Shown: positions 27,306-50,689, numbered from the stretch's first letter. The stretch: 64,000 nt of DNA from an uncultured archaeon (GCA_938045545.1 CALIBN010000007.1:32001-96000); one strand, 5' to 3'. Translations and numbers: made by a program. Notes: generated by a model from the sequence alone, not told the origin.

Positions 27306-28883
27306 TTGGGAAACCAACTGAAAGGGAAATTGCTCAGAGAAGCCTCTTCAAAAAGGCAGGATGGCGGAAAGAAAATAGTGTTAACCGCGTCTGCAGTGGA
27401 AATGAGCGATTTCAACCTAAACCCGTTCATAGCCTTTTCAGCAGGGTTCCCCCTGCCATTTTCTAAGAGGCTCCTCAGGGAAAGGCTTTATCCTCCGCCA
27501 CCGTTAAACGATGATGGAACCATTAAGCATGCCCCATACGGCTTGAGAAAAATAGAGTCTCTCCTTGTAGACGAGTTTGGCGAGGAGAACGTTGCAACCG
27601 TTTACCCGACCATGCTTGAAATGTTCGTAGGAAAGGAAACAAGGGTTGTAGGGATTTCTTCAATGGATCCGTTGGGGATAGGGTTTGTAAGCAGGACCTA
27701 CACGAGCCTTATCGGTATAGATGGTAAGCCCGTCACAAGAGTGGAGTTTGAAACACTTCTTTCCAACCCTGTTTTCAAGAAGTACAGGCCTAAAGTAGTG
27801 TTGGGTGGAAGCGGTGCTTGGCAAGTTGTCAAGACAGGGGTTCAGCAGAAGCTAGGGATAGACAGTGTGGTGATGGGCGAGGCTGAGGAGGATGTTGTAA
27901 ACCTCTTCAGAAAAGCCTTGAACGGTGAAGAGCTTCCGAAGCAGCTGGTGTGTAGTAGGCCCGTGCTTGAAAAAGTTCCGTGCATTAAGAAAGCATCCCT
28001 GTTCGGTGTTGTTGAAGTCACGCGGGGATGCGGAAGAGGATGTCAATTCTGCTCTCCCACGCTTAGACAGAGATACTCATTTCCTCTGGAACACGTATTG
28101 AAAGAGGTTGACATAAACGCTAGAAGCGGAACCAGGATGATAACTCTTCAGACTGACGATATATTTCTGTATAAGGCGGATTCTAGTTTCACGCCGAACG
28201 GGGATGCGGTGTTTGAACTGGTTGACTCAGTAGCTAAAGTTAAAGGAGTAAAGTATATTCAGGTGGCGCACGCGGCTCTTACGCCTGTAGTCTATGACCG
28301 TGGGCTTGTTGAAAAAATAGCGCCCACGCTCGTTGAGAAGTCCAGATGGACTTACTTGAACAATCAGAGGTATGCGACTTTCGAAATAGGTATTGAAACC
28401 GGGAGTGTCAGACTGATGGAGAAATACATGAGGGGGAAGGCGCTGCCATACACGCCTGAAAAGTGGCCTGATATTGTGGTTCAAGCTCTTGGGATACTTA
28501 ACGACAACCAGATATATCCTTTAGCGACACTCGTAATGGGTCTTCCCACTGAAAACGAGGAGGACGTTACTGCAACCCTTGAGCTGCTCGACAGGTTGAA
28601 GAATAATAGGGTCTTCTTTGTCCCCCTGCTATTCACATCTGAGGAGGATTGCGTTTTAAACAGGGAGAACCATGCCGACTTGCATAGTTTATCAGAGCTT
28701 CACTGGGATGTTTTCTCAACGTGTTGGAGGCACAACGTGAAAACGTGGAGGGGAAACGGCTTTCAACATTTTATCAGAATCGGGGGATTATTCGCCTACT
28801 TGGTTTACTACAGGCGGCTGCACGGCCCCTGGGTCCTAAAACATATTCTAAAGGTTTCAGGTTGGGGTGAAGAACTGCAATAG
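27306..28883 (+). CDS. Radical SAM protein, B12-binding-domain type
   Basis: APYGLRK.E, GISSMDPLG, GG.GAWQ, GEAE, EVTRGCGRGCQFC (CxxxCxxC), GIETGS. Confidence 0.85.
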   Translation: MGNQLKGKLLREASSKRQDGGKKIVLTASAVEMSDFNLNPFIAFSAGFPLPFSKRLLRERLYPPPPLNDDGTIKHAPYGLRKIESLLVDEFGEENVATVYPTMLEMFVGKETRVVGISSMDPLGIGFVSRTYTSLIGIDGKPVTRVEFETLLSNPVFKKYRPKVVLGGSGAWQVVKTGVQQKLGIDSVVMGEAEEDVVNLFRKALNGEELPKQLVCSRPVLEKVPCIKKASLFGVVEVTRGCGRGCQFCSPTLRQRYSFPLEHVLKEVDINARSGTRMITLQTDDIFLYKADSSFTPNGDAVFELVDSVAKVKGVKYIQVAHAALTPVVYDRGLVEKIAPTLVEKSRWTYLNNQRYATFEIGIETGSVRLMEKYMRGKALPYTPEKWPDIVVQALGILNDNQIYPLATLVMGLPTENEEDVTATLELLDRLKNNRVFFVPLLFTSEEDCVLNRENHADLHSLSELHWDVFSTCWRHNVKTWRGNGFQHFIRIGGLFAYLVYYRRLHGPWVLKHILKVSGWGEELQ

Positions 28884-28888
28884 AGGTT

Positions 28889-29182
28889 CTAAGGGTCTGC
28901 AATCATATCTCTAAGCGCTTTATCAACTATTCTCGCTATCTCGACTAGCCCAACCAGTATGCAGGGCACTCCCCTAAGCCTAGCCAAGTCAGCCGTCATC
29001 TGGTCCTGCGTGATGATTACGAGGCTGTTTCTAGCCGCGTGTTCAACTATTATCTCGTCCTCCGCCCCCTTTAAACCCACGTCGTCAACCGTCTGAGCAT
29101 CCCACCCAAGTGTTTTAAGAAACGGCTTTAAACCGGAGTACATTTCGTCCAATAGTATCTTGACGTTTTTCACGAATAGCAT
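28889..29182 (-). CDS. Small PIN-like protein (Mut7-C / DUF5615 type); start uncertain (29182 or 29173)
   Basis: KILLDEM, L..LG.D, G..D..I...A.......IT.D pattern. Confidence 0.7.
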   Translation of the reverse strand: MLFVKNVKILLDEMYSGLKPFLKTLGWDAQTVDDVGLKGAEDEIIVEHAARNSLVIITQDQMTADLARLRGVPCILVGLVEIARIVDKALRDMIADP

Positions 29183-29268
29183 CCTGTTCAGGCTTTTCTT
29201 TAATCTTTTCTCTACTAAAGTTGAAGACAATCTTAAACGCAAAAGTCTTATAAAAGAGAGGCTGCTTT

Positions 29269-30399
29269 ATGATTCGTCGGATGTGGGTTCTCAGAAGCGA
29301 TGCGGTAACCGTGTGGAACAATAAGGATGTTCAGAAAAGGCTCTCATGGTATAGGGCTGTTATGAAAAACCTTAAACCAGCCAAATTCCTAATAGCTAAA
29401 AGCATCCCGGCACAGGTCGGGGTTAAGGATTTAGAGAACATGAAGGAGGAGGAGCTCTGGAGGCTTCATGAAAAGCTTAGCTTAGAGTTCAGGAGAATCC
29501 ATGAGTCTGTGAAGACAGGTAAGGCTGGTGAGACCACTCCTGCAGAAGTAAGCTTCCTAGATGTAAAGATAATGCTCTCTGAAAGACTTGTTGAACACTG
29601 CGAGTTTTGCGAGAGAAGGTGCAGAGTGAACCGGAGGAGGGGGGAGCAAGGGTTCTGCAGAGTAGGGTTTGTAAGCAGGGTTTCAACATGGTTCCACCAC
29701 TTCGGGGAGGAGGGACCGTTAATAGGCGAGGGAGGCTCTGGAACAATATTCTTCGCAGGCTGCAACCTCGGGCCTTGCGTCTACTGTCAGAACTGGGATA
29801 TCTCTTCAGATCCTGGGAACGGGGGCGAGGTTAATCCGAGAACACTGGCGCTAATCAGCAGGAGGCTTAGTGCCGAGAATGCTGCAAACATAAACTACGT
29901 GGGGGGAGACCCGACGCCGAATCTCCATACAATACTCTCATCCCTTAAACATTTGGATGTAAACATTCCGCAGCTCTGGAACAGCAACATGTATTGCAGC
30001 ACTGAGGCTATGAGGCTTCTCGCTGAAGTCATAGACATATGGCTACCGGACTTCAAGTATGGCAGCGACGAATGCGCCAGAAGGCTTTCAAAGGTGGAAA
30101 AATATTTCGAAGTGGTGGCGAGAAACCACAGGATTGCCTACGAGAACGGCGATATGATAATAAGACACCTGGTTCTTCCTAACCATCTAGAGTGTTGCAC
30201 CAAGCCTGTTTTAAAATGGATATCTGAAAACACTCCTAACGTTCTCGTGAACATAATGGGCCAGTATCATCCGGATTACTTGGTGGCGAGAAACCCTGGA
30301 GCGTATCCAGATATCGCTAGAAGGCCTAGTGCGAGAGAGATGCAGGAAGCCTATGATTACGCGAGAAGGCTTAACATAGTTTTCGAACCGGTGTCCTAG
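29269..30399 (+). CDS. PflX-like radical SAM protein
   Basis: C.FC.R.C.VNR..G..G.C, H.GEE, SGTIFF.GC, CQNWDIS, N.VGG.PTP, WNSNMY, LPDFKYG, RHLVLP.H..CC, NIM.QY.P. Confidence 0.88.
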   Translation: MIRRMWVLRSDAVTVWNNKDVQKRLSWYRAVMKNLKPAKFLIAKSIPAQVGVKDLENMKEEELWRLHEKLSLEFRRIHESVKTGKAGETTPAEVSFLDVKIMLSERLVEHCEFCERRCRVNRRRGEQGFCRVGFVSRVSTWFHHFGEEGPLIGEGGSGTIFFAGCNLGPCVYCQNWDISSDPGNGGEVNPRTLALISRRLSAENAANINYVGGDPTPNLHTILSSLKHLDVNIPQLWNSNMYCSTEAMRLLAEVIDIWLPDFKYGSDECARRLSKVEKYFEVVARNHRIAYENGDMIIRHLVLPNHLECCTKPVLKWISENTPNVLVNIMGQYHPDYLVARNPGAYPDIARRPSAREMQEAYDYARRLNIVFEPVS

Positions 30400-31322
30400 C
30401 TAACCCGGTTATCCCAATATGGTTTTTTCAACATAATTGCCTCAATAAACCTCCTTTTTAAATCATCATCGCCGCCGCCTGAACGCATTAACCCCACTAT
30501 GTCCACCAAATTATCGTTTCTCAACAAGCAGGGCTTCAGCCTCCCGTCGCAAGTAACCCTGAGCTTAGAGCAGTGGGAGCAGAAGTCAGGGTTCCCAGTG
30601 GGCGAGACTATTTCGACTAGAACCGTCCTTCCGTTTCTGGGGAGCATGTAGATGGGGCGTTGTCCAGTGTAGTTGACAGTTTTCCCGGCTGATTTTGAGG
30701 AGATGGTTTTTTCAACATACTTAAGGCTGACGTGAAACTCTTGGAAAACCTTCTCACCACCCGGAATCGGCTGGAGCTCTATGAGCTGGAGAACAGCCCC
30801 AATGGAGCCAGCGTAATCCAGCATCTTTTCAACATCCTCTTCGTTAACCCCTTTCAGAACAACCATATTTATCTTAACAGGGTTTAGGCCACTCTCTAAT
30901 GCAGCATTTATCCCTTTGAAAACCCTTGAAACATCCCCGCCACCAGTTATCAGGCTGTACTTTGAAGAATCGAGACTAGGAAGGTTAACGTTAACTCTTG
31001 CTAGTCCCGCGTCCTTAAGATCCCCAGCGTATTTTTCAAGGAGGACACCGTTTGTAACGAGCGAAACCTCCCTGACGAGCGGGGAGATCGCTTTCACCAT
31101 GTCGACAACGTCTTCTCTAACCAGTGGTTCTCCACCGGTTATCTTAACAGTTTCAACGCCTATGCTGCTAGCGACCTCGACGATTTTTCTAACCTCGTTT
31201 AAAGCCATGCTTCTCCTAGGAGGAGGGTTCCATTCCCTGTGGCAGAAGAAGCAATTAAGGTTGCAGTTCTCCGTAACGGATATCCTGAGGTTTTTCAATG
31301 GCCCTTCGGCCTGTTGAAACAT
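30396..31322 (-). CDS. moaA: GTP 3',8-cyclase MoaA
   Basis: LRISVT..CNL.C.FCH.E, ITGGEPL.R, TNG, KIN.V, IEL, FC..C..LRVT.DG.LKPCL. Confidence 0.95.
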   Translation of the reverse strand: MFQQAEGPLKNLRISVTENCNLNCFFCHREWNPPPRRSMALNEVRKIVEVASSIGVETVKITGGEPLVREDVVDMVKAISPLVREVSLVTNGVLLEKYAGDLKDAGLARVNVNLPSLDSSKYSLITGGGDVSRVFKGINAALESGLNPVKINMVVLKGVNEEDVEKMLDYAGSIGAVLQLIELQPIPGGEKVFQEFHVSLKYVEKTISSKSAGKTVNYTGQRPIYMLPRNGRTVLVEIVSPTGNPDFCSHCSKLRVTCDGRLKPCLLRNDNLVDIVGLMRSGGGDDDLKRRFIEAIMLKKPYWDNRVS

Positions 31323-31503
31323 TGCGAAAATACTAAAACTCGGTTATAAAAAATTTTACTGGTTACTATGAATGGTCGATGTTTAAACGTTTACAAAACG
31401 CCTCCTGAAAACGTCTTTCAGTTTAAAAAAAGCATGATCTAATGATTTTTATACCCCAAAACTTTATAAGTTCAAAAAAAGTATTTTACATGGTGAAAAG
31501 AGT

Positions 31504-33486
31504 TTGAGTGAGACGAAAACAGTCTCCGTCATAGAAGAGTTAAAAGCAGGTTTCACCGTTAAAGCAATAATCCTCGCAATAGTCTTCGGAATAATAGGGC
31601 TCTTCGCAAACATAGCTACTTGGTGGGGCCTAGGGATAAGCTTAGAACCTGTTTTTGCAGGCAGAGTAGGGGCACCAATATACCCACCATACGGGCTCGT
31701 TTTCATACTTATTCTTGTAAGTCTGTTCATAAAGGCTTTGACGATCCAGGAGATCGCGGTGATCACTACAATAGCGTTCATAACTGCAGACAGCCCGTTC
31801 GTCATCGGCGCTTTCCTACAATTCATATTTGCAGGAACCTACTTGGTTAAGACCAACCCCAACGTAGAGGCCCTGCTAAAGTATTACCCGCCGCTGTGGA
31901 CCCCGGGCGACTATGACCTGATCGCCCCCGCTTGGGCGGGAAGGGCAGCTGTACCATTGGGCAGGTTGCTCCCATACCTAGCGTTCTGGATGATAATTAT
32001 AATCATTTGGTGTCTAATGATGGTTTTCCAGGCCGCGTTAATCAGGCTGCAGCTGATTAAAAAAGAGAGGCTCCCATTCCCAATGATGATTCCGATTAAC
32101 GAGATGCTTTCACAGCATCAGAAGGGAACCTTTACGCAATACATGAAGAAGCTTCCATTCATAGCAGGGGTAATACTGGGATGCATAATAGGTATACTAG
32201 GGGCTTTAAACTATATTATTAAATTCACGACGGTGTTCTTCGCCTTCGGACAGTTCTACCAGCAATGGTTCGCCGACCTTATGAGCTCGATCTCTCAAAA
32301 CACGATACAATCCTGGTGGATGTTCATACCCGCGGATGCTGCAATCATGTACCTTGCCCCCTTGGACATTCTTTCCTCAATAGTCATCTGGCTGTTCATC
32401 TTCCAAATCCTGTTCCCACTGGTCCTCGTCAACACTGGGGTGATAACGCCCAACACTAACCCGGCTGGTACAGGCCCGTTCCCATGGCTAAACTTCAGCT
32501 ACTACTGGGCCCCGTTGGCGATAGGCATCTGGACAATAGTCTTCGGCTACAAGACTTATGCTGAGAGCTTGAAGAAGAAGGAGTTTGCCCCGGGCGAACT
32601 CCCAAATTCACTCGTATGGTACGGCTTCGCAGCCACATGGCTTCTCTGGCTCATCCTATGGGTCATATTCGGAGCCAACGTTCTCCCGTTGCTAGTGGGC
32701 TTCATCGTGTGGTTCCTGTATACGACGGGTATGGTTGCTGTCTGCGGGGCAACAGGTACCTGGGTAGCTGGAGGAGACGCTGTTCCGGCGAGATTCTTAG
32801 CGTGGGGAGTAGGCACTGGAATAGGCCTGTTCCCAGCAAGCGGTGCGGCTGCTAAAACTCAATCCGCGTGGGCAACGATGGCCGGCGTCAGCATAACTGC
32901 CAGCATGGGTGGAGTGATTCATCAGAACACGCATTCCGCTTGGGCCTACACGTCAACCTACACGATGGTTGAACCCGCTAAGGTGAAGGAAACAGACATT
33001 CTAAAGTCGCACATCCTAGGAATACTTATAACGGTGCTTATCGGTGTTCCAGTTGCCGTCTACATAATCTACGGGACTGGAATAGGCCAGCTGAAGGCCT
33101 GGGGCCTCGGCAGCGGTGCAAACATCACCGGCTTCCAAGTGCCATGGGTAGTGGCTGATGCAGCGCCTCCTGCAGGCTTCCACTGGTGGATGTTCCCACT
33201 GGCTATAGTCGTGGTCGGCATCTTGTTCTTCCTGAGGGCTAGGTTCGCATGGTTCTTCTTCAGCCCGTATGCGTTATTCTTCTACTCTGGAATGTGGCTG
33301 ATAAACGCCGGGGTAGCGTGGATACTTAAACTCATAACGCTTAAAGTATTCGGAGCGAAGGCCTACGAAGAGGTTGGAGTACCCGTAGCAATAGGCTTCA
33401 TGGTTGGTGTCACTCTCATGGCTACGATAATCATGGGAGTGAACTCTGCTACCGGAGGAATATCAGTAGGACCGACAGGCTATTAG
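31504..33486 (+). CDS. Polytopic membrane protein, distant OPT/YSL-superfamily (DUF6785/6784-like) permease
   Basis: 660 aa, roughly 15 or more hydrophobic segments, ERLPFP motif shared with 38154-40073; TTTATAAG and GGTGA upstream. Confidence 0.7.
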   Translation: MSETKTVSVIEELKAGFTVKAIILAIVFGIIGLFANIATWWGLGISLEPVFAGRVGAPIYPPYGLVFILILVSLFIKALTIQEIAVITTIAFITADSPFVIGAFLQFIFAGTYLVKTNPNVEALLKYYPPLWTPGDYDLIAPAWAGRAAVPLGRLLPYLAFWMIIIIIWCLMMVFQAALIRLQLIKKERLPFPMMIPINEMLSQHQKGTFTQYMKKLPFIAGVILGCIIGILGALNYIIKFTTVFFAFGQFYQQWFADLMSSISQNTIQSWWMFIPADAAIMYLAPLDILSSIVIWLFIFQILFPLVLVNTGVITPNTNPAGTGPFPWLNFSYYWAPLAIGIWTIVFGYKTYAESLKKKEFAPGELPNSLVWYGFAATWLLWLILWVIFGANVLPLLVGFIVWFLYTTGMVAVCGATGTWVAGGDAVPARFLAWGVGTGIGLFPASGAAAKTQSAWATMAGVSITASMGGVIHQNTHSAWAYTSTYTMVEPAKVKETDILKSHILGILITVLIGVPVAVYIIYGTGIGQLKAWGLGSGANITGFQVPWVVADAAPPAGFHWWMFPLAIVVVGILFFLRARFAWFFFSPYALFFYSGMWLINAGVAWILKLITLKVFGAKAYEEVGVPVAIGFMVGVTLMATIIMGVNSATGGISVGPTGY

Positions 33487-33493
33487 ATCCAAA

Positions 33494-33506
33494 CCCTCTT
33501 TTTTTT
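33494..33506 (+). terminator. Archaeal oligo-T terminator candidate after the first OPT-like gene
   Basis: CCCTCTTTTTTTT a few bases after the TAG stop at 33486. Confidence 0.55.
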
Positions 33507-33636
33507 GAGCCACGGCTTAGTTGCTTCCATGTCAGCTTAAGCCTCCTTATCGTTACCCTTGAGGACATGAGCTTCCTTTTAAAGAGGGGTTTTAACGACG
33601 TAAAGTTTAAATCAATCTCGGTGGAGTTCCACGTTA

Positions 33637-36600
33637 ATGATAATAGTCCAAAGAAAATATTTGCTTGTTGCTGTGTTTTTAACGATGCTTGTTGTCCCTC
33701 TCTTAGCAATACGGGGGAGTCGGGAGGCTGTTGAAGAAAAAACCTGGTTAAACCAGGAAGCCCCGTTGGTTTCAGCTGACAGGATAAGAGACTATGTGGC
33801 GTTGTTTTCATCAATACAGTCAAGGTTCACAGGCTACCCGGGCTCTCTCCAAGCAGCCAGAATCATAATGGACAAGTTTAACGAATCTGACCTGAATGTT
33901 AGCCTTTTCAACTACACGGTGCTGGTCCCGTATGACTCCGGCTCATACATGAAGGTGGGTGGAAGAGTGATTAAGGCTTATGCTCTCTACCCTAATGTTG
34001 TAGCCACGGGTTTGAAAAAGGCTTCCGGAAAGCTTGTCTACGCGGGCCACGGTACTCCGGAGGAGCTTAGGGGACTTGACGTGAATGGTAACATAGTCCT
34101 CCTTGAGTTTAACTCCGGGTCTGCATGGGTAGACATGGTTAAGCTGGGCGCCTCCGGCATCGTTTTCCTAGAGGACGGTGACACGAATCGCTTCGAAGCA
34201 TTGAGAAAAATCTCCTCTGTCCCACTGAATACTCCAAGAATATACGTAGCAGGCCAGGAAGCGTCTCAGCTCAGAGAAATCGCTAAAAACAATCCGGTTG
34301 CAGAGCTCGTTAACGGTATGGAGTGGAGAGAAGTTGAGGCTGTTAACGTGATTGGGGAAATGAAGGGTGTTGAAGACCCGTCTAAAGTAATTATTATAAC
34401 GGCGAACTATGACTCCGGGTCGATTGTACCAGGGGTCGCTCCGGGGGCTGATGAAGCCATAGGTATTTCTGTCATGCTTGAATTCATCAGATCTTTGAAG
34501 CATCAGGGCCTCTCGCCGAGATACACAGTTCTTTTTATAGCGATGTCTGGACATTGGCAGGCCCTAGCCGGTGCTAGAAGCTTCGTGGAACAATTCTACT
34601 TTAACAATTCCGCGATAGGCAGGGAAGTCTTCCCGTATCTCGTCATAGACATTAAGATCAGCTCAGGAAGCCCGCACTTAAACCTTGTTTACAGCGGCAT
34701 GATGTACTCCATCAATACTCAGTATATTGCAAGCAGGTTCAGAGACCTCCGAATATTTTTTGCAAATTCAATTAAATCTTTCATTCAATCTTTCCCAAGC
34801 TATAGCGAAAAGGTTTTAACGAGCAACCTGTATCCTGGTCTATACGGCATTGCATACGACTCGGCTAGTCCCGGTTTTCAGAAGGGCCTTGCCTTCAAGC
34901 ATATTCTCGAAATGGAGCCTTTTGAGCTGGCTAACAGCATTGGGCTCGGAATAATTACTTTCGACGACTTCAGGTATCGCGTTTTCACCCCGTCTGACAG
35001 GCTGGAGTTCATCGATTTCCAGAACGTCATACCTCAAGCACAGCTAACATTCCAGATCCTGTTCGACCTGTTGAAGGCTCCGGTTGAAGAATGGTATCCA
35101 GGCAGTTGGGAGGGTTTAAGACCGTTAAGAATGGGTGAAACCTACACTGGAGTTGGTTTCACTGTATTAAAGGTTGAAGTGGTTGAATACGACCCGACTA
35201 CGCCAGGCCTATACAGCCCGGTTCCAAAAGCTTTCGTCACAGTGGGGAGCACGTTGGACCCATTCACGCTGATGTTTTCTAAATCAGATTCTTCAGGCTT
35301 CGCGGTGTTCAGGGGTTTAAGGCCATATCCTGAGGCGACGACCGCGTTGCAAACCCCTATTCAGAGCTACGTGATCGACGAGGAGGGGAGAATAATCTAC
35401 GCCCCAGACAGGGGGCAGCATGGTGCCGGAACATATCCTTCAAGCGTAACGATAGTCTCACCTGAACAATTCACGAGGAACGTTGTGTTTAAATGCGGGA
35501 GCGCCGTCATGTTCGATTTAACCGACCCGGACACTCTGCAGGCTGCAGTCTCTCCAAGCTCGATGTTTGGAACCACGAATGCTTATTCGGCACAGCTCAG
35601 GAATTACGGTGGCTACGAGACCCCGCTAACGATAAGCGTGATGATGATGCAGATACCTGGATACTCTATTCTAGACTCGTTCGGCTACGAGTTCGACCCC
35701 ATTCTGTCGGTTGCACAGGTTTACGCCCCGCCCCGCATCAGGTTCGGCTTCGTTGTTAAAAGCACGTCTATGGCTAAAACGGTTGCAGTCTATACGAATG
35801 TGACTCTGCAGAACCAGGATGGGTACGGGTATTATTTGGGTAAAGAGGGGGACAGGCTGCTCGTAAAGGGTGGAATACCCGGCATGTTCATGGAGATGTT
35901 GACATTAGCATATGGCAGGTATTTGGCTCAAGCAGATATTCAAGTTCTGGACCCAAAGACGATGGAGAATTTGAATTATGCGATAATGTTTAACCAGACG
36001 CTTCTTCAGACGGCTTCGAAAAAGGATTACAGCGGGTTCTTGACGAGCGCTTTAATGGCTTGGGGGTTCTCCAGCAAGGCTTACCAAAGCTCTTTGAGCG
36101 TTGTACGCGACGCGGTTACGAGCATAATTCTCGTATTCGCTTTAGCAATACCCTTCATCCTTCTGTTTTCCTCCCTGGTTTACAATTTGAGCAGCGGCTT
36201 TAGAAGCGTCGCCCTTACTCTTGCTGTGGCGCTGTCCGTGGCGTTGCTTTTAACAGTATTCCACCCGGGTTTCGGGCTAGCGGTAAACGTGCCTGCAATA
36301 TTCATAGGGACGCTGATAGTTGCCCTGGTTATTCCAGTGATGTTCTTCCTGTTCTCCAACTTCTCTACAGGGCTTTCCAGGCTGAGGAGAGAAGTTCTTG
36401 GTGCGCACTTCCTTGAGAGAAGCGGATTCGACGTTTCGTTTTCAGCCGTATCCATAGGAATAGGCAACTTGAAGAAGCGTAAGTTTAGAACAGTATTAAC
36501 GATGCTGTGCATAGTAATCATAAGCTTCTCGCTTTCGTCTCTGACTTCCGTGACGGAGATAAGGGCTTTAAGAGTTACCCCAACGCCCACCGAGGTAACT

Positions 36601-38154
36601 TACAACGGGGTGCTGCTGAGAACAGCCAACTTCGTCCCTTTAAACAGGAAGTTGATCGACCTAGTGTCAACCTACATATCTGGCAAGACACTTTATGCTC
36701 CGAGGTACTGGGTTTATCTTCCTTCCACTCCTGGAGAGGGGACTGCTGGCACAATAGTAATATCCTCTGAGAAAAGCAAGGCTTTGATCTACGCGGCTGT
36801 CGGAATAAGCCCTGTAGAGTTGAAAGCATCGTTCAAGCAGGTTGAAAAAATACTTTTAGAAGGATCCATGTTTAAAGAGGAAGAGGTTTTCTCAGCATTA
36901 TTGCCGAACAGCCTTGCGGAAAGCCTTAAGGTGAAGACAGGCGAATACGTCTGGGTTAACGGCTTCCGCTTAAGAGTAGCAGGCATACTCAACACGACCG
37001 CAATTCTAGCATATGTGAAAGATTCAGATGGTTTCGTGGACGTCCTGCCCATGGACACGTATATTCTTTCGAACGAGAGAACTCCTCCCCGTGCTGAGGC
37101 AGCGTTGAGCCCAGGATCCGTAATATTCGTGCCCGCCGGCCTGGTTGAATTGATTCCGGAGGCATGCTTGACAAGCGTTTTCATACCGGCAGACGGGATG
37201 GTGTTCGAGGAACTTTACGAGAAGTGCGGCGAGGTTTTCTCCGCTTTCGAAGGTTTAAACATTTATCTGACGTATAACGGCACTGTCTACCGGTTCTCCA
37301 AGGAGAACGTTATCTCGCTATTCGGCTTCCAGTTCATTCTAATACCCATGATCATCGCGGGGCTGATAACTATGTCGACGATCCTAGGCGGAGTCATGGA
37401 GAGAATACGTGAGGGCTACATATATAGCAGTCTAGGCCTAGCACCGGTTCAAGTAGGCTTAATGTTCTTCGGGGAGAACATCATATACGCTATCGTAGGC
37501 TCGATGACAGGCTATCTCGGCGGCATCTCAGCCTCATACTTGACGAGGAAAATAGGCTTGATAAACCTCCCTGTGAACTACACGTCGTCATTCGTCATGA
37601 TAGCTGTCGGTCTGGTGATAGTGCTGGTTCTGGCAGCGTCGCTCTACCCGTTCTACAGAGTCTCCGTCACAGTAACCCCGTCGCTAGAGAGGAAGTGGCG
37701 TCTCCAGACTAAGCCGAAGGGAGACTCGTGGGACATACCGATACCTTTCCGTATAAAGGAGGATGATAGGGCCGCAGGAATGGCTGTTTTCCTCCATGAG
37801 TATCTCTGGAATAAGAGGATAGAGAGGGCAGGAGTCTTCTCCATTGAAAACGTTGAGGTCAGCAAGATAGAGTCTGGGATTGGTATTAAGTCAAGAGTCT
37901 GGCTGGCACCATTCGAGCAGAACATAAAGCAGGATATGAACATAGTGATATTGAAGAGCAAGACAGAGCAGAATTTCCTTATTTTAATGAATCTAACCAG
38001 GGTGTCCGGACCCTACGACTCATGGGTCAGGTTCAACTATCCCTTTATTGATGAGATAAGGAAGCAAATGCTGATATGGAACGTTCTCAATCCAGAGGAG
38101 CGGGAGAAATACATACGTATGGCTAGGGAGCGTAGCCTAGTAGGTGAGAAATAA
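33637..38154 (+). CDS. 1505-aa fusion: N-terminal anchor, PA domain, M28-fold (nicastrin/nicalin-like) domain, TM block, FtsX/MacB-type permease
   Basis: SRFTGYPG, G.LVYAG.G......DV.G.IVL (PA); ANYDS...PGAD (M28-like); KRKFRTVLT (MacB TM1); ER.RE..IYSSLGL.P..V..MF..E (FtsX motif); PSLERKW C-terminal domain. Confidence 0.8.
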   Translation: MIIVQRKYLLVAVFLTMLVVPLLAIRGSREAVEEKTWLNQEAPLVSADRIRDYVALFSSIQSRFTGYPGSLQAARIIMDKFNESDLNVSLFNYTVLVPYDSGSYMKVGGRVIKAYALYPNVVATGLKKASGKLVYAGHGTPEELRGLDVNGNIVLLEFNSGSAWVDMVKLGASGIVFLEDGDTNRFEALRKISSVPLNTPRIYVAGQEASQLREIAKNNPVAELVNGMEWREVEAVNVIGEMKGVEDPSKVIIITANYDSGSIVPGVAPGADEAIGISVMLEFIRSLKHQGLSPRYTVLFIAMSGHWQALAGARSFVEQFYFNNSAIGREVFPYLVIDIKISSGSPHLNLVYSGMMYSINTQYIASRFRDLRIFFANSIKSFIQSFPSYSEKVLTSNLYPGLYGIAYDSASPGFQKGLAFKHILEMEPFELANSIGLGIITFDDFRYRVFTPSDRLEFIDFQNVIPQAQLTFQILFDLLKAPVEEWYPGSWEGLRPLRMGETYTGVGFTVLKVEVVEYDPTTPGLYSPVPKAFVTVGSTLDPFTLMFSKSDSSGFAVFRGLRPYPEATTALQTPIQSYVIDEEGRIIYAPDRGQHGAGTYPSSVTIVSPEQFTRNVVFKCGSAVMFDLTDPDTLQAAVSPSSMFGTTNAYSAQLRNYGGYETPLTISVMMMQIPGYSILDSFGYEFDPILSVAQVYAPPRIRFGFVVKSTSMAKTVAVYTNVTLQNQDGYGYYLGKEGDRLLVKGGIPGMFMEMLTLAYGRYLAQADIQVLDPKTMENLNYAIMFNQTLLQTASKKDYSGFLTSALMAWGFSSKAYQSSLSVVRDAVTSIILVFALAIPFILLFSSLVYNLSSGFRSVALTLAVALSVALLLTVFHPGFGLAVNVPAIFIGTLIVALVIPVMFFLFSNFSTGLSRLRREVLGAHFLERSGFDVSFSAVSIGIGNLKKRKFRTVLTMLCIVIISFSLSSLTSVTEIRALRVTPTPTEVTYNGVLLRTANFVPLNRKLIDLVSTYISGKTLYAPRYWVYLPSTPGEGTAGTIVISSEKSKALIYAAVGISPVELKASFKQVEKILLEGSMFKEEEVFSALLPNSLAESLKVKTGEYVWVNGFRLRVAGILNTTAILAYVKDSDGFVDVLPMDTYILSNERTPPRAEAALSPGSVIFVPAGLVELIPEACLTSVFIPADGMVFEELYEKCGEVFSAFEGLNIYLTYNGTVYRFSKENVISLFGFQFILIPMIIAGLITMSTILGGVMERIREGYIYSSLGLAPVQVGLMFFGENIIYAIVGSMTGYLGGISASYLTRKIGLINLPVNYTSSFVMIAVGLVIVLVLAASLYPFYRVSVTVTPSLERKWRLQTKPKGDSWDIPIPFRIKEDDRAAGMAVFLHEYLWNKRIERAGVFSIENVEVSKIESGIGIKSRVWLAPFEQNIKQDMNIVILKSKTEQNFLILMNLTRVSGPYDSWVRFNYPFIDEIRKQMLIWNVLNPEEREKYIRMARERSLVGEK

Positions 38155-40073
38155 TGGAAGAGGCTGCACGTGAAAAAGAAGCTTTCATCCCTGGGCTGAC
38201 AATCGTATCGGTCTCCGCAGTATTGTTCGGGCTTGTGGTAATCGTGCCCGCAATAATCTATTTAGGCTGGGCCGTCGGCTCTTTAGGTGGGACCGAGAGG
38301 TTCATCCCGGTTTTCGTCACAATCCTCCTATTCACCGAGGCGGGGAGGCTCGTTAAGAGGTATATAACATCGCAGGAGGCTTACATAATATACTTCATGC
38401 TTCAAGCCATAGCCCTATGGTTCGTCGGCGGAGGAATGTTCGGCGATTTCCTTATAAGGTATTACTACAGGTCCGCCCCTTACACTATCCTATACGGTAT
38501 CGCTGAAAAGCTTCCCACATGGTATGTCCCTGAGCTCGGGAGCTACGGCCCACTCCACAGGACTTTCCTCTCCCCAGACTGGGTGATTCCGATATCGATT
38601 TCTCTAGCTGTTAACGTTTGCGTGCTGATGATAGATTACGGTGTTTCTTTCATAACAAACATGCTCTACATAGAGATAGAGAAGCTCCCATTCCCCGTCG
38701 CACCCATAGACTACCAGGCGATTTCAACCCTTACTGAGAGAACACCTGAGAAAATAATGTACTTCTCTTTCGCCGCTGTGATAAGCTTCATCTACGAGTT
38801 CGCCATCTATGGGATTCCAAACATAACCTCGATTTTCCTAGGCAGGGCTATAACCGTCATACCGTATCCCTGGGTGGACTTAACCACGGGGATTGAAAGA
38901 ATCCTGCCAGGAGCCGTTTTTGCAGTCGGAACTGATATTGCTCAATACATGGTGGGCTGGCTTATCCCGTTTAACGCCGCGGTATGGATGTTCATCGGGT
39001 CGGTGGCAGTCTGGGTTTTCGGAAACTCTATAGCGCTCAGGATTGACCATCCCTACTTCAGCATGTGGCAGAGAGAATGGACTTACGGCGCGTCAATCCA
39101 ATGGTGGTGGCAGAGAGCAATCTACGACCTGTGGGCAAGTCCACAAGTAGGTTTAACACTCGGGATCGCGCTTGGAATACTTGCTGTAGGAGCCAAAAAC
39201 ATTGCGCGAGCAATCCTCTCCCTCAGACATCTTTCGGCAGAGCAGCTTAAAACATCATACTTGCCTTTCAGCTGGATAGTTGCTTTAATCGCCGCCGGGT
39301 CTATAGGCGGGTTGCTTGTTTCAGTCTCCCTTGCCCCAGAACTATGGTTCGTCTGGGTGGTGACCTGGACGATAGTTCCGTTTATTCAAGGTATTCTGAC
39401 AGCCAGGGCCACTGCTGAAACCGGGTTATCTGTCACCATACCCTACATTAGGGAGGCGTTCTTCGTTTCTTTCACAAGGCCTGGAGACGTGGTCCCGTGG
39501 GTGGTTCCGACTCATGTGACAAGTAGCGCCGGGATAATTACGCACAGGGTCTACGTGGCTAAGCTCCTGAAAGTCAGGCCCCTGGACTACTACAAGGCCT
39601 ACCTCATATTCTTCATAGTAGCTATTCTCCTATCCCTGCTGTACGTTTCAATATTCTGGGCGATGACACCCATACCTTCTGCCTTCTACCCCTACGCCAG
39701 CTACTCCTGGCCTATTTCAGCCCTCTACTTCTCCCTATGGGTCTCCAGGTCGATCGAGATTTTCAAGGTGGACGTGATAGCTATCTCAAGCGTCTTATCC
39801 TTCATAATGGTCGTCGTCTCCTCCCGTTTCCCAACGCAATACTTCTCCCCAATAGGCTTCCTATACGGTTTTCAAAACATTCCCGCTTACACGCTTCCAC
39901 CGTTGATCGGAGCCCTGATCGGAAAATGGCTTGAGAGGAGAATGGGTAAGGATAAATGGGTGGTGCGGAGAGGAGTGATAATCGCCGGAACATTCTGCGG
40001 GATCGCGCTTGCAGTAGCAGCCGCTGTCGCCGTCACTATAATGGGGAGAGCGATAACAGCTAAACCTTTCTAG
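38154..40073 (+). CDS. OPT-superfamily-like permease, translationally coupled to the upstream fusion
   Basis: 639 aa polytopic; EKLPFP, PYPW.D.T and P.P...YP motifs; TAATG stop/start overlap at 38152-38156. Confidence 0.75.
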   Translation: MEEAAREKEAFIPGLTIVSVSAVLFGLVVIVPAIIYLGWAVGSLGGTERFIPVFVTILLFTEAGRLVKRYITSQEAYIIYFMLQAIALWFVGGGMFGDFLIRYYYRSAPYTILYGIAEKLPTWYVPELGSYGPLHRTFLSPDWVIPISISLAVNVCVLMIDYGVSFITNMLYIEIEKLPFPVAPIDYQAISTLTERTPEKIMYFSFAAVISFIYEFAIYGIPNITSIFLGRAITVIPYPWVDLTTGIERILPGAVFAVGTDIAQYMVGWLIPFNAAVWMFIGSVAVWVFGNSIALRIDHPYFSMWQREWTYGASIQWWWQRAIYDLWASPQVGLTLGIALGILAVGAKNIARAILSLRHLSAEQLKTSYLPFSWIVALIAAGSIGGLLVSVSLAPELWFVWVVTWTIVPFIQGILTARATAETGLSVTIPYIREAFFVSFTRPGDVVPWVVPTHVTSSAGIITHRVYVAKLLKVRPLDYYKAYLIFFIVAILLSLLYVSIFWAMTPIPSAFYPYASYSWPISALYFSLWVSRSIEIFKVDVIAISSVLSFIMVVVSSRFPTQYFSPIGFLYGFQNIPAYTLPPLIGALIGKWLERRMGKDKWVVRRGVIIAGTFCGIALAVAAAVAVTIMGRAITAKPF

Positions 40074-40075
40074 AG

Positions 40076-41125
40076 TTAGCGGCTGTGCTTATTTCCTTTT
40101 AGCGCGCCTATCTCGGAAGTATAGAGAATTAGTCGGTCTACCTCCGTGCTCCATCCAAGCTCCCTGGTGTGATTCGGATCCACCGCCTCAACCCATATTA
40201 GCCACCTGTCGCCCCTTATCTTGTCGAATAAGGCTTGAGCATAGGTGTGAATCGGGTACTCGGCGTGTTCGAAACGTGAAAGCGGCGTCCAAACTTTTTC
40301 GAAAATAGTTTCTAGATTAAGCCTTCCTAAATCAATACTGTAGGCGACAAAATGTTTGGTAAGCGCGTTTCCCCTTATCACGTCCAGCGTTTTCGTGCCG
40401 ATGAAAATCAGACCCGTTGAGCCTGGGATTATTGAGCCGCTGAGCAGGAAGAAGTCTGGTTGACTCTTGCCGTCAACAGTAGGTACTCCAAGCTTAACCC
40501 AGTTCTTCCCATCGCTACCGACAGCCAACGCCGTCTTCACGATGCTTGTGCCCGCCCTCCTAGCCTTGTAGAGGCAGAAGTATCTGCCATCAACTATGTC
40601 TATAGTGGCGTCTCTCGATTCTCCACTGTCGTATTCCTCGCTTCCTCTGATTACGAAGCCTTCAGGCTCCCATGGGCCGGAAGGGTCTTCCGAAGTAAGT
40701 AGGAAGGTTTCCCACCTGCTCTCTGTGAAAGCCTTCCCCTCGACAACCAAGTTCTCCCTTGAAACATTCAGCGAAAGATAAAGATGGTATCTCCCAGTCA
40801 AAGGGTCTTTTAAAAGCTGCTGGTTCTCTATGCTTAGAATCTGGTTTTCCGTCATCTTGCTCAACTCTTCCTTAGTAATCCATGTTACCAGACCATAATT
40901 CTCACCGTCCTTCGACCTGTATATTTCCACAGCGTACCCTCTCTTCATTTCCCTCATCTCCCTGGGCCTACTCGTCAACCAGTATTCCCTATTCTCCTCA
41001 TCGATCCACATTTTTCCAGCGCCGCACCAAGAGCCAGGGTTGAAATTGGGAGGGTCGAGGAGCACCTTGTTAAACCTTCTTTTGGAGAAGATGGCTTGAG
41101 GCGGGTATAGGCCATACCAGCTCAT
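40076..41125 (-). CDS. Hypothetical protein, probable beta-propeller glycosidase-like fold (GH32/43/117/130-like)
   Basis: Repeated aromatic beta strands, S.DG..Y/W, DPSGPW, RD..I..VDGRY...YK; no signal peptide. Confidence 0.5.
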   Translation of the reverse strand: MSWYGLYPPQAIFSKRRFNKVLLDPPNFNPGSWCGAGKMWIDEENREYWLTSRPREMREMKRGYAVEIYRSKDGENYGLVTWITKEELSKMTENQILSIENQQLLKDPLTGRYHLYLSLNVSRENLVVEGKAFTESRWETFLLTSEDPSGPWEPEGFVIRGSEEYDSGESRDATIDIVDGRYFCLYKARRAGTSIVKTALAVGSDGKNWVKLGVPTVDGKSQPDFFLLSGSIIPGSTGLIFIGTKTLDVIRGNALTKHFVAYSIDLGRLNLETIFEKVWTPLSRFEHAEYPIHTYAQALFDKIRGDRWLIWVEAVDPNHTRELGWSTEVDRLILYTSEIGALKGNKHSR

Positions 41126-42267: not shown

Positions 42268-43398
42268 TTAGAATATGTCTTCCGCGTAGGCTACACCTGC
42301 CGCATGTATGCCCCATTCTCGATATTTTAAGCATGTGGCTGAGTAATAAGCCGTATAGATGGTTCCGTCATCAAGCTGGACACTACTTGGGTATCCGCAG
42401 TCAGCGTCTGTCGCATAAGAGACTAAGGCGGCTCTCCTGTTAAACATCCATGATCGGCCGCCGTCGAGGCTTATCACCGCATGAACCCCGTAAGGTACCT
42501 TCCGGTGTCCAAAGGTTAGCAAAACCTTCCCGCTCTTAAGGTAACAAAGGTCCCCGGGGTGTTCACCGCCACCAGTCACCTGTTTAGGCTCAGACCATGT
42601 GTAACCCATGTCTCGAGAGCGACTGATGGCAACGCATTCGCCGCCACCCTGAGCATGGGGTCCGCGGAGGGCTGCCAACAAGTCTCCATCGGGTAATTGT
42701 AGAAGAGCGGTTTCATTATATCCTTTAGCGACGATGGTTAAATCCTTCCATGTGAAACCATTGTCCTCGGAGCGTAGAATATAGCTGGTCTCTATCGAGC
42801 CTTCTAAAGTATATTCTTGAGAGTAAACAGACATAAGAATAGTTCCATCATCCGTCTGAAGCATTCTCCCATAGGGTGAAACCGCCCCTTTAAACGGAAA
42901 CTCCAGCGGCTCTGGCTTACTCCACTCCCTACCACCGTTGGTCGACCTCGTTACGAACATTTGCCACCTCATCCCATTCCTCTTCCACAACCCATTCTCA
43001 TAACCCCAGACTCTTGCAAAGGCAACCAGCAGAGTACCGTCCTTCAATTGACATAGCGCCGGATTCCTATCGTCAGTCTGAGAAACAGTTACGATTCTTG
43101 GCATTGTCCATGTCTTACCCCCGTCTTTAGATAACGAGAGTTCCAAGCGGCCTCGTTGACCAACATGGTAATCCCCCATGCGGAAGACAACCGCTAGGTT
43201 TCCGTCACGGAGTTTAGTCAAAACCGGGAAATATCCACCCATAGGAGTTATAAGATATCTTCTAACCCGCTTAAGGGAACCAACCATCGCCTCATCGCAA
43301 AACTGCATTCCATACTCGAACTCCTCATCGGCTTTCATGTTTTTCCACGGCCCACCGTTTTTCCATATGCGGGCATTCTTATTAATTTTGATGTTCAT
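42268..43398 (-). CDS. BNR/Asp-box sialidase-like beta-propeller glycosidase
   Basis: Five Asp-boxes (SKDGGKTW, STNGGREW, SEDNGFTW, SRDMGYTW, SLDGGRSW), DDRNP, NET, GYPSSV. Confidence 0.82.
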   Translation of the reverse strand: MNIKINKNARIWKNGGPWKNMKADEEFEYGMQFCDEAMVGSLKRVRRYLITPMGGYFPVLTKLRDGNLAVVFRMGDYHVGQRGRLELSLSKDGGKTWTMPRIVTVSQTDDRNPALCQLKDGTLLVAFARVWGYENGLWKRNGMRWQMFVTRSTNGGREWSKPEPLEFPFKGAVSPYGRMLQTDDGTILMSVYSQEYTLEGSIETSYILRSEDNGFTWKDLTIVAKGYNETALLQLPDGDLLAALRGPHAQGGGECVAISRSRDMGYTWSEPKQVTGGGEHPGDLCYLKSGKVLLTFGHRKVPYGVHAVISLDGGRSWMFNRRAALVSYATDADCGYPSSVQLDDGTIYTAYYSATCLKYREWGIHAAGVAYAEDIF

Positions 43399-45706: not shown

Positions 45707-46804
45707 TTACGTATATTCTCCGTATTTTCTGATCAGCTTTATGTATTCTTGAAATGCGCTGAAAGAAACATCAGGCGGCACACTGTGGTCTGAACATGCT
45801 ATGTATCCCCCGCCTTTTTTTGCGACGGGTATCTTGCGGGATATTTCAACCTCAATCTCCTTGGGGTTGCCAATCTTCCTTGCATCGAGGTTTCCAATGA
45901 AGGAAAGGGTCTTCCCATATTTCTCTTTCAGCTCGACAACATCCATTCCCGCCTTAACTTCCATCGGCTGTAAGGCCGTGAAACCAGCTTCGATCAATTT
46001 CGGGATCAACAGGTTCACGTTGCCGTCAGTATGCAATATGGTCGGCATATTCCTCACCCTATAGGCAGAGGTCATTTGAGCATGCGCCGGCTTCACGAAC
46101 TCGTCGTAAACCTTCGGGGAGAAGAACGGCCCCTTGTTGTAACCTATATCGTCCCAAACCCACAGTCCGTCAACTCCTAGCTTAAGATAGGTTTCCACGA
46201 TCCTTGAGAAATACTGGCCCAAATGTCTGAAAATATACTTAACGAGGTCCGGATCCCTGTGGATCGCGACTAACACCTTGTCCACGCTTTCCCCAAGTAT
46301 ATGTCTAGTTGCTTCAAAAGGGCCTATTATCGAGCAGAATACGGCGTAATGCTCCTTCAACCTCCTTATGCCTTCCTCAAGCTCCCTCTTAAACGGGTAT
46401 CTGCTGCTTGAAACCCTGATTGGCAGCTCAGGGTCTAACAGGGGCTCAAGCTTCTCTTTAAAATCCTCAATCGTCGAGACCGATGGTGGTCCAGCGGGAT
46501 GAGGCGTACCGCTCCTACCGATCCAAGCCTTCACCCTCACGCCCCAGGAATCTATGTATGTTCGAAACTTATCATTCTCTTCGAGTATGATGGTGTCATA
46601 CTTAGGACTTACATCCGGACCTATTAGGTAGATATCGTAGCCAAAATAATCATGTAAGGAAACTCCTCTAGGCAGGCCCTCGCTATACCATCTCTCCAGG
46701 GTTTCGCCCCATGGGAAATCTATGAAGGGAACCCTGTCTGCCTCCTCGTGGTTTAACACTCTTAACACCCGTTCCCTCGAATCCATGTTTTTCAAAAATC
46801 CCAC
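45707..46804 (-). CDS. URO-D / MtaA-CmuA methyltransferase-family protein
   Basis: MDSRERV...NHEEADRVP, D.WG, GPFE, WDD.GY..GPF.SP, HTDGN, LQP.E..AGMD, GN.D, GGGYI..SDHSVP. Confidence 0.88.
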   Translation of the reverse strand: MGFLKNMDSRERVLRVLNHEEADRVPFIDFPWGETLERWYSEGLPRGVSLHDYFGYDIYLIGPDVSPKYDTIILEENDKFRTYIDSWGVRVKAWIGRSGTPHPAGPPSVSTIEDFKEKLEPLLDPELPIRVSSSRYPFKRELEEGIRRLKEHYAVFCSIIGPFEATRHILGESVDKVLVAIHRDPDLVKYIFRHLGQYFSRIVETYLKLGVDGLWVWDDIGYNKGPFFSPKVYDEFVKPAHAQMTSAYRVRNMPTILHTDGNVNLLIPKLIEAGFTALQPMEVKAGMDVVELKEKYGKTLSFIGNLDARKIGNPKEIEVEISRKIPVAKKGGGYIACSDHSVPPDVSFSAFQEYIKLIRKYGEYT

Positions 46805-49882: not shown

Positions 49883-50689
49883 CTACGCTAGGGCAAGACC
49901 CTCCTTCTTAGCCTTTCTCTCCAAATGGAATATTGCAGCTTTCGCTAGAAGGCCGAAACCTAGTGTGAAGGCGAGTAGCATTCCGATCTCAACTTCCACA
50001 GGCCACACGGTGCTGGCTCCCATTATGAAGTGGCGTGAAAGATCAATCCCGTGGGTTAGAGGTATGAAGAATGCGATGATTTTCAACGGGTCAGGCATAA
50101 ACTGGAGGGGTACGAACATTCCCGTGGCTATTTGAAAGAGGAAATTAAGGATGGACATTACTGCTGAAACATCTTTGAAAAGCAGTATGGCGCTGGACAT
50201 TATAACACCTATCTGGCATAGGGCTAGGAAGGTTAGGAGTAGCGTGATGCAGGTCATTAAGAAAGCAGGTAGAGGTGGAAAACTGCCTAGGAGGATGAAT
50301 GCTGTCGCAAACATAGGTATTATGCCGAACAATGTTCCAACAACAGCTTGGGAGACGGATGAGGAAAGCATGTAGACATATCTGGAGACTGGCGAGGCAA
50401 ACGTGTACTCGATCTGACCCCTAGTTAACTCGTCCCTTATCTCCCAGGCTCCCCAGGTTGCAGCGCCCTGATAGTTTTGGAAAGCAACCCCGATTAATAG
50501 AAATACGGCGTAATTCGTGCTTCCAATCGAGCCGAGTTTAGCAGGGTCTATTACGAACCCGAAGATCATGAGGCCAAGACCCCATATGAAGCTCATTATC
50601 AACTCGACTGTGAAATTCAGCTTGTAACGCGTTATCTCCCTTATTCTCCTCCAGACTGTCATCCTGATCATTGTCAGAATATTGCTCAT
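49883..50689 (-). CDS. ABC-2 type exporter permease
   Basis: E...G.IE..F.SP, G.F.P....P, P.T..ID..R. Confidence 0.87.
   Translation of the reverse strand: MSNILTMIRMTVWRRIREITRYKLNFTVELIMSFIWGLGLMIFGFVIDPAKLGSIGSTNYAVFLLIGVAFQNYQGAATWGAWEIRDELTRGQIEYTFASPVSRYVYMLSSSVSQAVVGTLFGIIPMFATAFILLGSFPPLPAFLMTCITLLLTFLALCQIGVIMSSAILLFKDVSAVMSILNFLFQIATGMFVPLQFMPDPLKIIAFFIPLTHGIDLSRHFIMGASTVWPVEVEIGMLLAFTLGFGLLAKAAIFHLERKAKKEGLALA

Follow-up and report, generated by a model that had tools for sequence, protein, structure and literature searches.

The stretch analysed here, 64,000 nucleotides from the genome of an uncultured, Brockarchaeota-like archaeon (GCA_938045545.1, CALIBN010000007.1:32001-96000; hereafter the window), carries three co-oriented genes, A, B and C, which encode two polytopic membrane proteins on either side of a giant FtsX protein (Table 1). 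The stop codon of B and the start codon of C have the A of a TAATG in common. The genome holds three such trios, 23-31% identical (tblastn): that of the window, a second on the same contig, 42 kb further downstream, and a third, differently arranged, on contig C29; the latter two are referred to as paralogues 2 and 3. In the window the trio has neither an ATP-binding cassette (ABC) ATPase nor a binding protein next to it; the four ABC ATPases there (21580-22530, 50689-51696, 54613-55296 and 56271-57272) each lie beside their own permease. Open reading frames (ORFs) and sequence thus bear out an earlier note on this DNA, which had described three co-oriented genes, the last two coupled by TAATG, the lack of an adjacent ATPase or binding protein, and a MacB ATPase (54613-55296) with a permease of its own. 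The G+C content is about 47-50% throughout the window and no tRNA was found across it. Searching A, B and C against NCBIfam gave nothing above noise.

In our reading B has 1 + 3 + 4 transmembrane (TM) helices, an extracellular part of about 800 residues and a C-terminal cytoplasmic stretch of about 160. A simple hydropathy scan places TM segments at residues 9-27, 830-848, 857-875, 888-906, 952-970, 1226-1244 and 1318-1336; it misses TM3 of the FtsX module and also flags 1155-1173 within the ectodomain. The three-TM block corresponds to helices 2-24, 30-50 and 60-96 of an AlphaFold model of residues 826-1505 (predicted local distance difference test, pLDDT, 81.9; predicted TM-score, pTM, 0.60; 26 sequences). 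Pfam recognizes M28 at residues 237-319, a match limited to profile positions 1-79 of 193, and FtsX (PF02687) at 1233-1343 (E = 4.6e-11, 43.3 bits, cut-off 25.5). Pfam, scan and model together agree with the layout first sketched in the earlier note, a PA/M28 region followed by a TM block, a MacB-like module, FtsX and a cytoplasmic domain.

The extracytoplasmic head of B resembles aminopeptidases of the M28 family. In phmmer searches residues 57-317 match the PA-bearing aminopeptidase 2ek8 (E = 4e-7) and residues 235-364 align with the Aeromonas aminopeptidase; nicastrin and the transferrin receptor are matched weakly. The Pfam PA domain is found in two relatives (P0034, P0045) and not in B of the window. 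In Aeromonas aminopeptidase numbering, the co-catalytic zinc ligands and general-base Glu of M28 enzymes are His97, Asp117, Glu151, Glu152 and Asp179. We take the Glu-Glu pair to be the general base and a zinc ligand, and the His of the HHDS motif to be the first His zinc ligand. Unlike in the active enzymes, the Glu-Glu columns of B hold H306 and W307 (alignment to 2ek8 and the Aeromonas enzyme), and N257 stands opposite the His of the 2ek8 HHDS motif. None of 27 full-length family members has Glu at either column, and the bridging Asp (column of D272) is kept in only 7 of the 27. On this evidence the head, M28-like in fold, is not a plausible peptidase.

The C-terminal half of B has the fold of the MacB/FtsX permeases. 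With the AlphaFold model as query, Foldseek returns MacB (5gko), LolCDE (LolC/LolE; 9rld), the pneumococcal protein 5xu1, HrtBA, YbbAP and YtrEF, all with probability 1.0; VIA-align scores range from Z = 16.3 to 13.4, with 5xu1, YtrEF and MacB at 16.3-16.1. The ectodomain (model residues 158-401) superimposes on the periplasmic domain of MacB [3ftj; Z = 13.2, root-mean-square deviation (rmsd) 4.5, 182 residues]. Pfam MacB_PCD, which has no match in B of the window, is matched in paralogue 3 and many relatives. In known FtsX proteins the TM2-TM3 loop, with an ER.REIG-type motif, contacts the ATPase; the ER.RE motif of B (E1255, R1256, R1258 and E1259) is invariant across the three paralogues. 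The cytoplasmic tail was compared in a wide search with VIA-align 2, which gave the VCR of METTL16 (Z = 9.5, rmsd 2.6, 103 residues aligned) and the KA1 domains of SAD-B, MARK3 and Kcc4p (Z = 8.8-9.2), with rmsd values of 2.6-3.0 over about 100 residues for the whole set. In this program chance alone often yields a best Z of 7-8; the scores are middling, and the KA1/helix-grip-like assignment of the modelled fold is tentative. A search of the ESM Atlas with the tail gave no usable match. We also considered the tail as a nucleotide-binding module and dropped the idea: no P-loop is seen on reading the sequence, and the fold is KA1-like.

Gene A matches Pfam DUF6785 (PF20581; E = 5.6e-13, 48.7 bits, cut-off 25). 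Its bacterial-type counterparts match both this family (E about 1e-160) and DUF6784 (PF20580; E about 1e-35), the latter also matched in paralogue 2 and absent from A of the window. C of the window has no Pfam match at all; 6 of 12 C-family members match Pfam OPT (PF03169) at E ≤ 0.1, and C of paralogue 2 reaches 25.6 bits (hmmscan, whole model; cut-off 25.8), or 26.7 bits in a genome search. A and C are not significantly similar by BLASTP (E = 0.4, with the alignment limited to the ERLPFP/EKLPFP motif). When a profile of 10 A proteins is compared with one of 12 C proteins in hhalign, however, the families align end to end over 583 columns (99.0%, E = 6.2e-18); on this profile evidence A and C are homologous. 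The E(R/K)LPFP motif, which the earlier note had picked out in both flanking proteins, is real and invariant in both families (E188, L190, F192 and P193 in A; E176, L178, F180 and P181 in C). The AlphaFold model of C (pLDDT 89.0, pTM 0.89; 22 sequences) has as its sole significant Foldseek matches in the PDB the barley transporter YS1 (7wst/7wsr; E = 4.5e-10, probability 1.00, TM-score 0.65/0.69, structural alignment of about 670 columns); all other matches have TM-scores of about 0.1. C thus has the YS1 fold, and A, judged by its profile homology to C, is OPT-fold as well, so the suspicion that both flanking proteins are OPT-like was justified. Sequence profiles found no solved structure for either family.

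The three genes stay together. A, B and C are all present at 13 of 15 loci from species-representative genomes (Brockarchaeota, Thermofilaceae and other Thermoproteota metagenome-assembled genomes, MAGs), the other two being cut by contig ends, and at 17 of 20 further loci from diverse Thermoproteota genomes. Among 19 loci tabulated the trio occurs in eight gene orders, some with a second, head-less B. B-A fusion proteins also exist (P0051, 2088 aa; an ORF of locus L048, 2122 aa; P0225, 2133 aa), with M28, MacB_PCD, FtsX, DUF6785 and DUF6784 in one chain. The three paralogous trios, the linkage kept through eight gene orders and the fusions support the view that A, B and C form one functional unit, and with it the earlier proposal of a single hetero-oligomer. 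The B module is large as a family (1,622 clusters at 50% identity, E ≤ 1e-30; at least 433 metagenomic relatives), with members in many Thermoproteota and in bacteria such as Phycisphaerae and Desulfosoma; relatives, which the earlier note had placed in Thermofilum-like archaea and Planctomycetes among others, were found in a Thermofilaceae MAG (L018) and in Phycisphaerae.

A candidate motor lies elsewhere in the genome. FtsX is matched 11 times in it. Seven of these proteins are giants (990-1654 aa), comprising B of each trio and four more, and no MacB-type ABC ATPase lies beside any of the seven genes. On contig C11 a minimal FtsX protein, S, is encoded next to a MacB-clade ATPase, N. A second ATPase, N', 62% identical to N, stands alone in a housekeeping neighbourhood on contig C18: ABCE1 is encoded on one side and a 180-aa ORF with no assigned family on the other, phosphoribosyltransferase and thermosome genes lie beyond, and no neighbour encodes a membrane protein. 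The Walker A, Walker B, signature and H-loop motifs are intact in both.

Relatives of these genes stand next to B in other organisms. Metagenomes were scanned with an alignment of three bacterial-type B proteins, and the loci of 80 of the relatives were kept; 76 have a B of at least 1000 aa and 57 of these at least 900 bp upstream of it. At 41 of these 57 loci the gene immediately upstream of B, on the same strand, encodes an ABC ATPase of about 245 aa; at two more (L073 and L110, the latter with a split B) the ATPase is elsewhere in the cluster. A full-length homologue of S (30-44% identity) is present at 42 of the 80 loci and, where mapped, sits just upstream of the ATPase. Of 10 ORFs intervening between B and C, 8 match DUF6785 together with DUF6784 (E about 1e-160). 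From these positions, the usual metagenomic operon reads S, N, B, A, C.

The linked and the unlinked motor genes belong together in sequence. All 45 B-adjacent ATPases have as their best match in the archaeon's genome N (40, mean identity 64%) or N' (5). In a tree of 49 ATPases (31 single-domain proteins of 200-400 aa from the genome, 15 of the 45 B-adjacent ones and three archaeal ones near trios), all 18 B-adjacent or B-near ATPases form a clade with N and N' and no other ATPase of the genome (support 99/98), and its sister clade (100/100) holds the canonical MacB ATPases, including that at 54613-55296 of the window. The C-terminal half of B was found in 58 of 201 Thermoproteota genomes. Of these 58, 57 have a member of the ATPase clade (identity of at least about 60%, best E ≤ 1e-92), as does one of the 143 B-negative genomes; the sole B-positive genome without it is 70% complete. 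S (E ≤ 1e-28) is present in 52 of the 58, with two weaker small-ORF matches besides, against one of the 143. Families f7, f19 and f31 each include genera that hold all parts and genera that hold none, and G046, a closed genome, has S, N, N' and a C-A-B trio all within 14 kb.

Another ABC ATPase, encoded with a 12TM_1 protein upstream of paralogue 2, was considered as the motor and rejected: the pair occurs in one lineage only (4 of the 15 species-representative loci plus the archaeon's own), and its ATPase falls outside the B-associated clade. The archaeon's own copy of this ATPase has one TGA within its reading frame.

The best explanation, which we consider somewhat more probable than all others taken together, is that A, B and C are an exchangeable, substrate-specific module of a five-part, ATP-driven type VII (MacB/FtsX) ABC machine whose motor is S and N. 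The five-part, ATP-driven composition is likely in itself. One set of S and N probably serves the three trios together with the genome's four further giant FtsX proteins. The parts, their folds and linkage, the fusions and the co-occurrence with S and N are observed; that all five assemble physically, the direction of transport and the cargo are what we infer.

Several observations weigh against this explanation. The case for S and N assembling with B is one of gene order and co-occurrence. The cut-offs for co-occurrence were set after the gaps in the scores had been seen, and because the genomes are related the counts overstate their independence. At twelve of the 57 metagenomic loci B occurs with C but without A nearby or, on the available contig sequence, an ATPase, and at three archaeal loci (L029, L040 and L042) B stands alone, so the five-part set is not universal. 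A and C of the window fall below the Pfam threshold for OPT. A run of eight T after the stop of A, a possible terminator, and TATA-like boxes upstream of A and of B hint that A may be transcribed separately from B-C. On uptake, no characterized MacB-type system is, to our knowledge, an importer: all expel, extract or activate on the outside. Finally, the surroundings of the bacterial-type operons look biosynthetic, not catabolic: in 4 of the 12 complete operons inspected the gene immediately upstream encodes a GT28-type glycosyltransferase, and histidine phosphatase, deacetylase-like and PqqD-like genes also flank them.

In the proposed machine, ATP binding and hydrolysis by N would work on B through its FtsX helices, perhaps with S as their partner, and so move the extracytoplasmic domains as in MacB, LolCDE and FtsEX. 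The large, non-catalytic PA/M28-like head of B would hold the ligand, and A and C, with their OPT/YSL fold, would provide the membrane path, perhaps as a heterodimer comparable to the YS1 homodimer. In the archaeon the cargo would most likely be oligosaccharides that secreted enzymes set free and whose breakdown glycosidases in the cytoplasm complete.

B resembles the permeases of type VII ABC systems (MacB, LolCDE, FtsEX, HrtBA, YtrEF, YbbAP and BceAB) in its 4-TM FtsX module with an extracytoplasmic domain between TM1 and TM2, and in the ER.RE motif of its TM2-TM3 loop; the partner ATPase clade, as noted, is sister to the canonical MacB ATPases of the same genome. It differs from them in its 1505 aa, N-terminal signal anchor, PA/M28-like ectodomain of about 800 aa, three extra TM helices and KA1-like tail. 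Unlike in type VII systems, a separate minimal FtsX protein and two OPT-fold proteins stand alongside, and the motor genes are unlinked in archaea and apparently common to several permeases. We know of no type VII member that works with an OPT-fold partner, and literature searches turned up none; the pairing of a mechanotransmitter with two OPT-fold proteins is to that extent unprecedented. The head resembles the binding-only M28/PA ectodomains of the transferrin receptor and nicastrin, but is here fused to an ABC permease. In the shared-ATPase sugar importers of the MsiK/MsmK type, one ATPase serves several permease sets; as there, the ATPase locus here lies apart from permease sets that adjoin genes for carbohydrate-active enzymes. 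Those systems, however, are type I importers with soluble binding proteins, whereas here a type VII FtsX protein takes the place of the permease, its head is tethered and its partners have the OPT fold. C has the fold of YS1, with sequence similarity of A and C to OPT/YSL proteins at the detection limit. YS1 is a homodimeric, proton-coupled importer of the elevator type (PMC9691689). Where YS1 forms a dimer, each cluster here has two OPT-like paralogues; and whereas YS1 is a self-sufficient proton symporter, A and C are paired with a giant FtsX protein and, in relatives, also with an ABC ATPase. This genomic pairing with B argues against A and C being self-sufficient carriers.

As to cargo, the neighbours of the archaeal loci resemble polysaccharide-utilization loci. 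Near trios and the other giant FtsX genes we find GH57 (L027), GH57 with a maltose-forming-amylase-like gene (L032), an oligogalacturonate lyase (L035), GH51 with BNR_2 (L037), Leloir-pathway genes of the galactokinase, GalT and epimerase types (L034) and an FGGY kinase (L012); in the window the neighbours are a GH2 mannosidase-like gene and BNR_2. TrmB regulators (L030, L007), CBM4_9 with a GH42-like gene (L005), and GHL10, fucosidase and polysaccharide deacetylase genes (L006) are further neighbours of this kind. A hydrophobic N-terminus, indicating a secreted or anchored protein, is present in both GH57 proteins and in the CBM4_9, GH42-like and GHL10 proteins; none is seen in the lyase, GH51 or fucosidase, which would be cytoplasmic. 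The earlier note had stated that all glycosidases of the window lack signal peptides, which holds for GH2, GH106-like, GH4 and BNR_2, likewise cytoplasmic by this measure, and fails for a CBM96 protein (5981-8578), whose N-terminus is hydrophobic. It had also seen two glycosidase-like genes just downstream of the trio: one is the BNR_2 match at 42271-43398, and the other, a 349-aa ORF at 40079-41125, has no family match. The carbohydrate context as such recurs in archaeal loci. The mixture of secreted and cytoplasmic enzymes fits the layout expected around an oligosaccharide importer, and the many divergent trio copies per genome would fit substrate-specific cassettes. Because of these neighbours, we think that the archaeal machine probably captures and imports oligosaccharides; glycan uptake, as a part of the overall proposal, is held tentatively and falls a little short of an even chance. 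The boldest version, that this is the first type VII importer, in which a tethered, non-catalytic PA/M28-like head, moved by an ATPase common to many permease sets, passes oligosaccharides to an elevator-type heterodimer of OPT/YSL-fold proteins, is rather unlikely.

Transport in the opposite direction is also rather unlikely, and slightly more so. B would then use ATP to remove or expel a glycolipid, a lipid-linked glycan, a surface glycoconjugate or a modified peptide at the membrane's outer face, with A and C bringing the substrate across or holding it. The fold of its C-terminal half, shared with MacB, LolCDE, HrtBA and FtsEX, and the bacterial-type operons with their GT28_C, GT1, histidine phosphatase, DUF2334/deacetylase-like and PqqD-like flanks are what such extraction or export would lead one to expect, as is an ABC exporter gene near many of these loci. 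Some archaeal genomes, however, carry six or more divergent copies of B, each beside different catabolic carbohydrate genes and cytoplasmic glycosidases, which nutrient-specific uptake explains better than a single envelope pathway; and YS1, the only solved protein of the OPT/YSL fold, is an importer (PMC9691689).

B could instead regulate or sense, activating or positioning extracellular enzymes or signalling the presence of substrate in an FtsEX-like manner, with A and C as ordinary, co-regulated proton-coupled carriers. FtsEX does activate extracellular hydrolases by mechanotransmission, secreted enzymes (GH57, CBM4_9, GH42-like and GHL10) lie next to several trios, and YS1 is a proton symporter (PMC9691689). 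We nevertheless judge this improbable: the B-A fusions, the linkage of three genes through eight orders and the constant presence of two OPT-like genes per B point to one physical unit and not to co-regulation.

Least probable by our estimate, and refuted on the terms that the note itself had set by the dedicated ATPases that the neighbourhood survey found directly upstream of B in most relatives, is the model of the earlier note, a motor-less hetero-oligomer whose FtsX module is driven by ion-coupled OPT subunits: the missing ATPase beside the trio in the window and at most archaeal loci, the 12 B-C pairs, and the extra cytoplasmic domain of B as a possible docking site for other partners speak for it, but the orthologous ATPases and small FtsX protein in the archaeon's own genome, their co-occurrence with B over 201 genomes, the invariant ER.RE motif, and the KA1-like fold of that domain, which is no known coupling or energy module, speak against it.

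The family is widespread and, as far as literature searches reach, uncharacterized. No paper was found on DUF6785 or DUF6784, or on Brockarchaeota together with FtsX; a search for FtsX, peptidase M28 and OPT returned, among the papers listed, only ones on FtsEX in cell division and unrelated ones. DUF6785 and DUF6784 gain a context here, and two transport principles that are not known to work together, the ABC mechanotransmitter and the elevator-type OPT carrier, would meet in one system. If the archaeal copies import glycans, Brockarchaeota and other saccharolytic hot-spring archaea have been annotated without their main carbon uptake systems; the words 'transporter' and 'permease' are absent from the main text of the Brockarchaeota paper (PMC8065059), and some of its 'extracellular peptidases' may be non-catalytic heads of the B type. 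If the machine is a type VII importer, ATP hydrolysis and an elevator carrier would be coupled in one assembly, and A-B-C cassettes would be interchangeable in the manner of polysaccharide-utilization loci.

Table 1. Positions of the genes and features discussed. Plain numbers are window coordinates; C and L numbers denote contigs of the archaeon's genome (G000) and loci of the survey.
Feature	Location	Strand	Basis or remark
Gene A, polytopic membrane protein, 660 aa, TTG start	31504-33486	+	ORF scan; Pfam DUF6785
Gene B, giant FtsX protein, 1505 aa	33637-38154	+	ORF scan, Pfam, hydropathy scan, AlphaFold model
Gene C, OPT/YSL-fold polytopic membrane protein, 639 aa	38154-40073	+	ORF, AlphaFold model, Foldseek
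TAATG, B stop overlapping C start	38152-38156	+	sequence reading
B residues 57-364, PA + M28-like head, catalytically degenerate	33805-34728	+	phmmer
B residues 830-906, three-TM block returning the chain to the cytoplasm	36124-36354	+	hydropathy scan; model
B residues 952-1345, MacB/LolC-type module: TM1, periplasmic-core-like ectodomain, TM2-TM4 FtsX	36490-37671	+	
B residues 1355-1485, cytoplasmic alpha+beta domain, KA1/helix-grip-like, no P-loop	37699-38091	+	model
T8 run, 13 bases 3' of the A stop; possible archaeal terminator	33499-33506	+	by eye only
TTTAAA, TATA-like box 26 bases 5' of the B ATG	33606-33611	+	by eye only
TTTATAA, similar TATA-like box upstream of A	31463-31469		by eye
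S, minimal 4-TM FtsX, 211 aa, no ectodomain	C11:21808-22440		
N, MacB-clade ABC ATPase next to S	C11:22459-23181		
N', lone second ATPase, 241 aa	C18:13157-13879		
ABC ATPase + 12TM_1 pair	L004:5668-7952 (C7:103583-105952)		orthologues at L015, L019, L020
Four other giant FtsX genes	C7:4401-7493, C38:38216-43177, C29:41495-44707, C42:26070-29039		loci L006, L007, L025, L026
Bacterial-type flanks, GT28_C	L068, L080, L086, L101		
Bacterial-type flanks, GT1	L068		
Bacterial-type flanks, histidine phosphatase	L080, L101		
Bacterial-type flanks, DUF2334/polysaccharide-deacetylase-like	L101, L108		
Bacterial-type flanks, PqqD-like	L072, L073		
Conserved ~230-aa, ~305-aa and PqqD-like genes	L072:18753-20742, L080:20261-22316, L121:18949-20492, L073:7283-8432		
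Aldehyde:ferredoxin oxidoreductase genes	60422-62197; L004:1241-3058; L005:17117-18865; L041:14089-15933		
URO-D-family genes	45710-46804 and 63450-63998; L004:3723-4745; L033:3830-4921		

The remaining four giant FtsX proteins (990-1654 aa) lack the M28 head, and their genes have neither A nor C in the vicinity. The ectodomain of one includes a GH2-like Ig domain. The genes of two are surrounded by those for glycosidases, sugar kinases or TrmB regulators. All four may draw on the shared S/N motor.

At the metagenomic loci with B and C only (among them L047:7155-9851, L064:9436-12426 and L049-L053) the C-type protein is enlarged to 800-1000 aa, in one case with a weak Reg_prop match, which suggests a variant with an extra domain on C and A absent. 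Beside the lone B of two archaeal loci (L029:6981-8880 and L040:11297-13196) lie conserved ORFs of about 296 and 339 aa without a Pfam family, possible replacement partners.

Downstream of the bacterial-type S-N-B-A-C operons, conserved genes of about 230 and 305 aa recur; a PqqD-like gene also adjoins these operons, and an ABC exporter gene (about 840 aa) often follows 3-4 kb downstream. In the window, three radical-SAM genes, two of unknown type and one MoaA-like and divergent from A, lie between the GH2 gene and A (27306-31322). Aldehyde:ferredoxin oxidoreductase genes occur within about 2-20 kb of trios at four loci, and genes of the URO-D family recur near trios.

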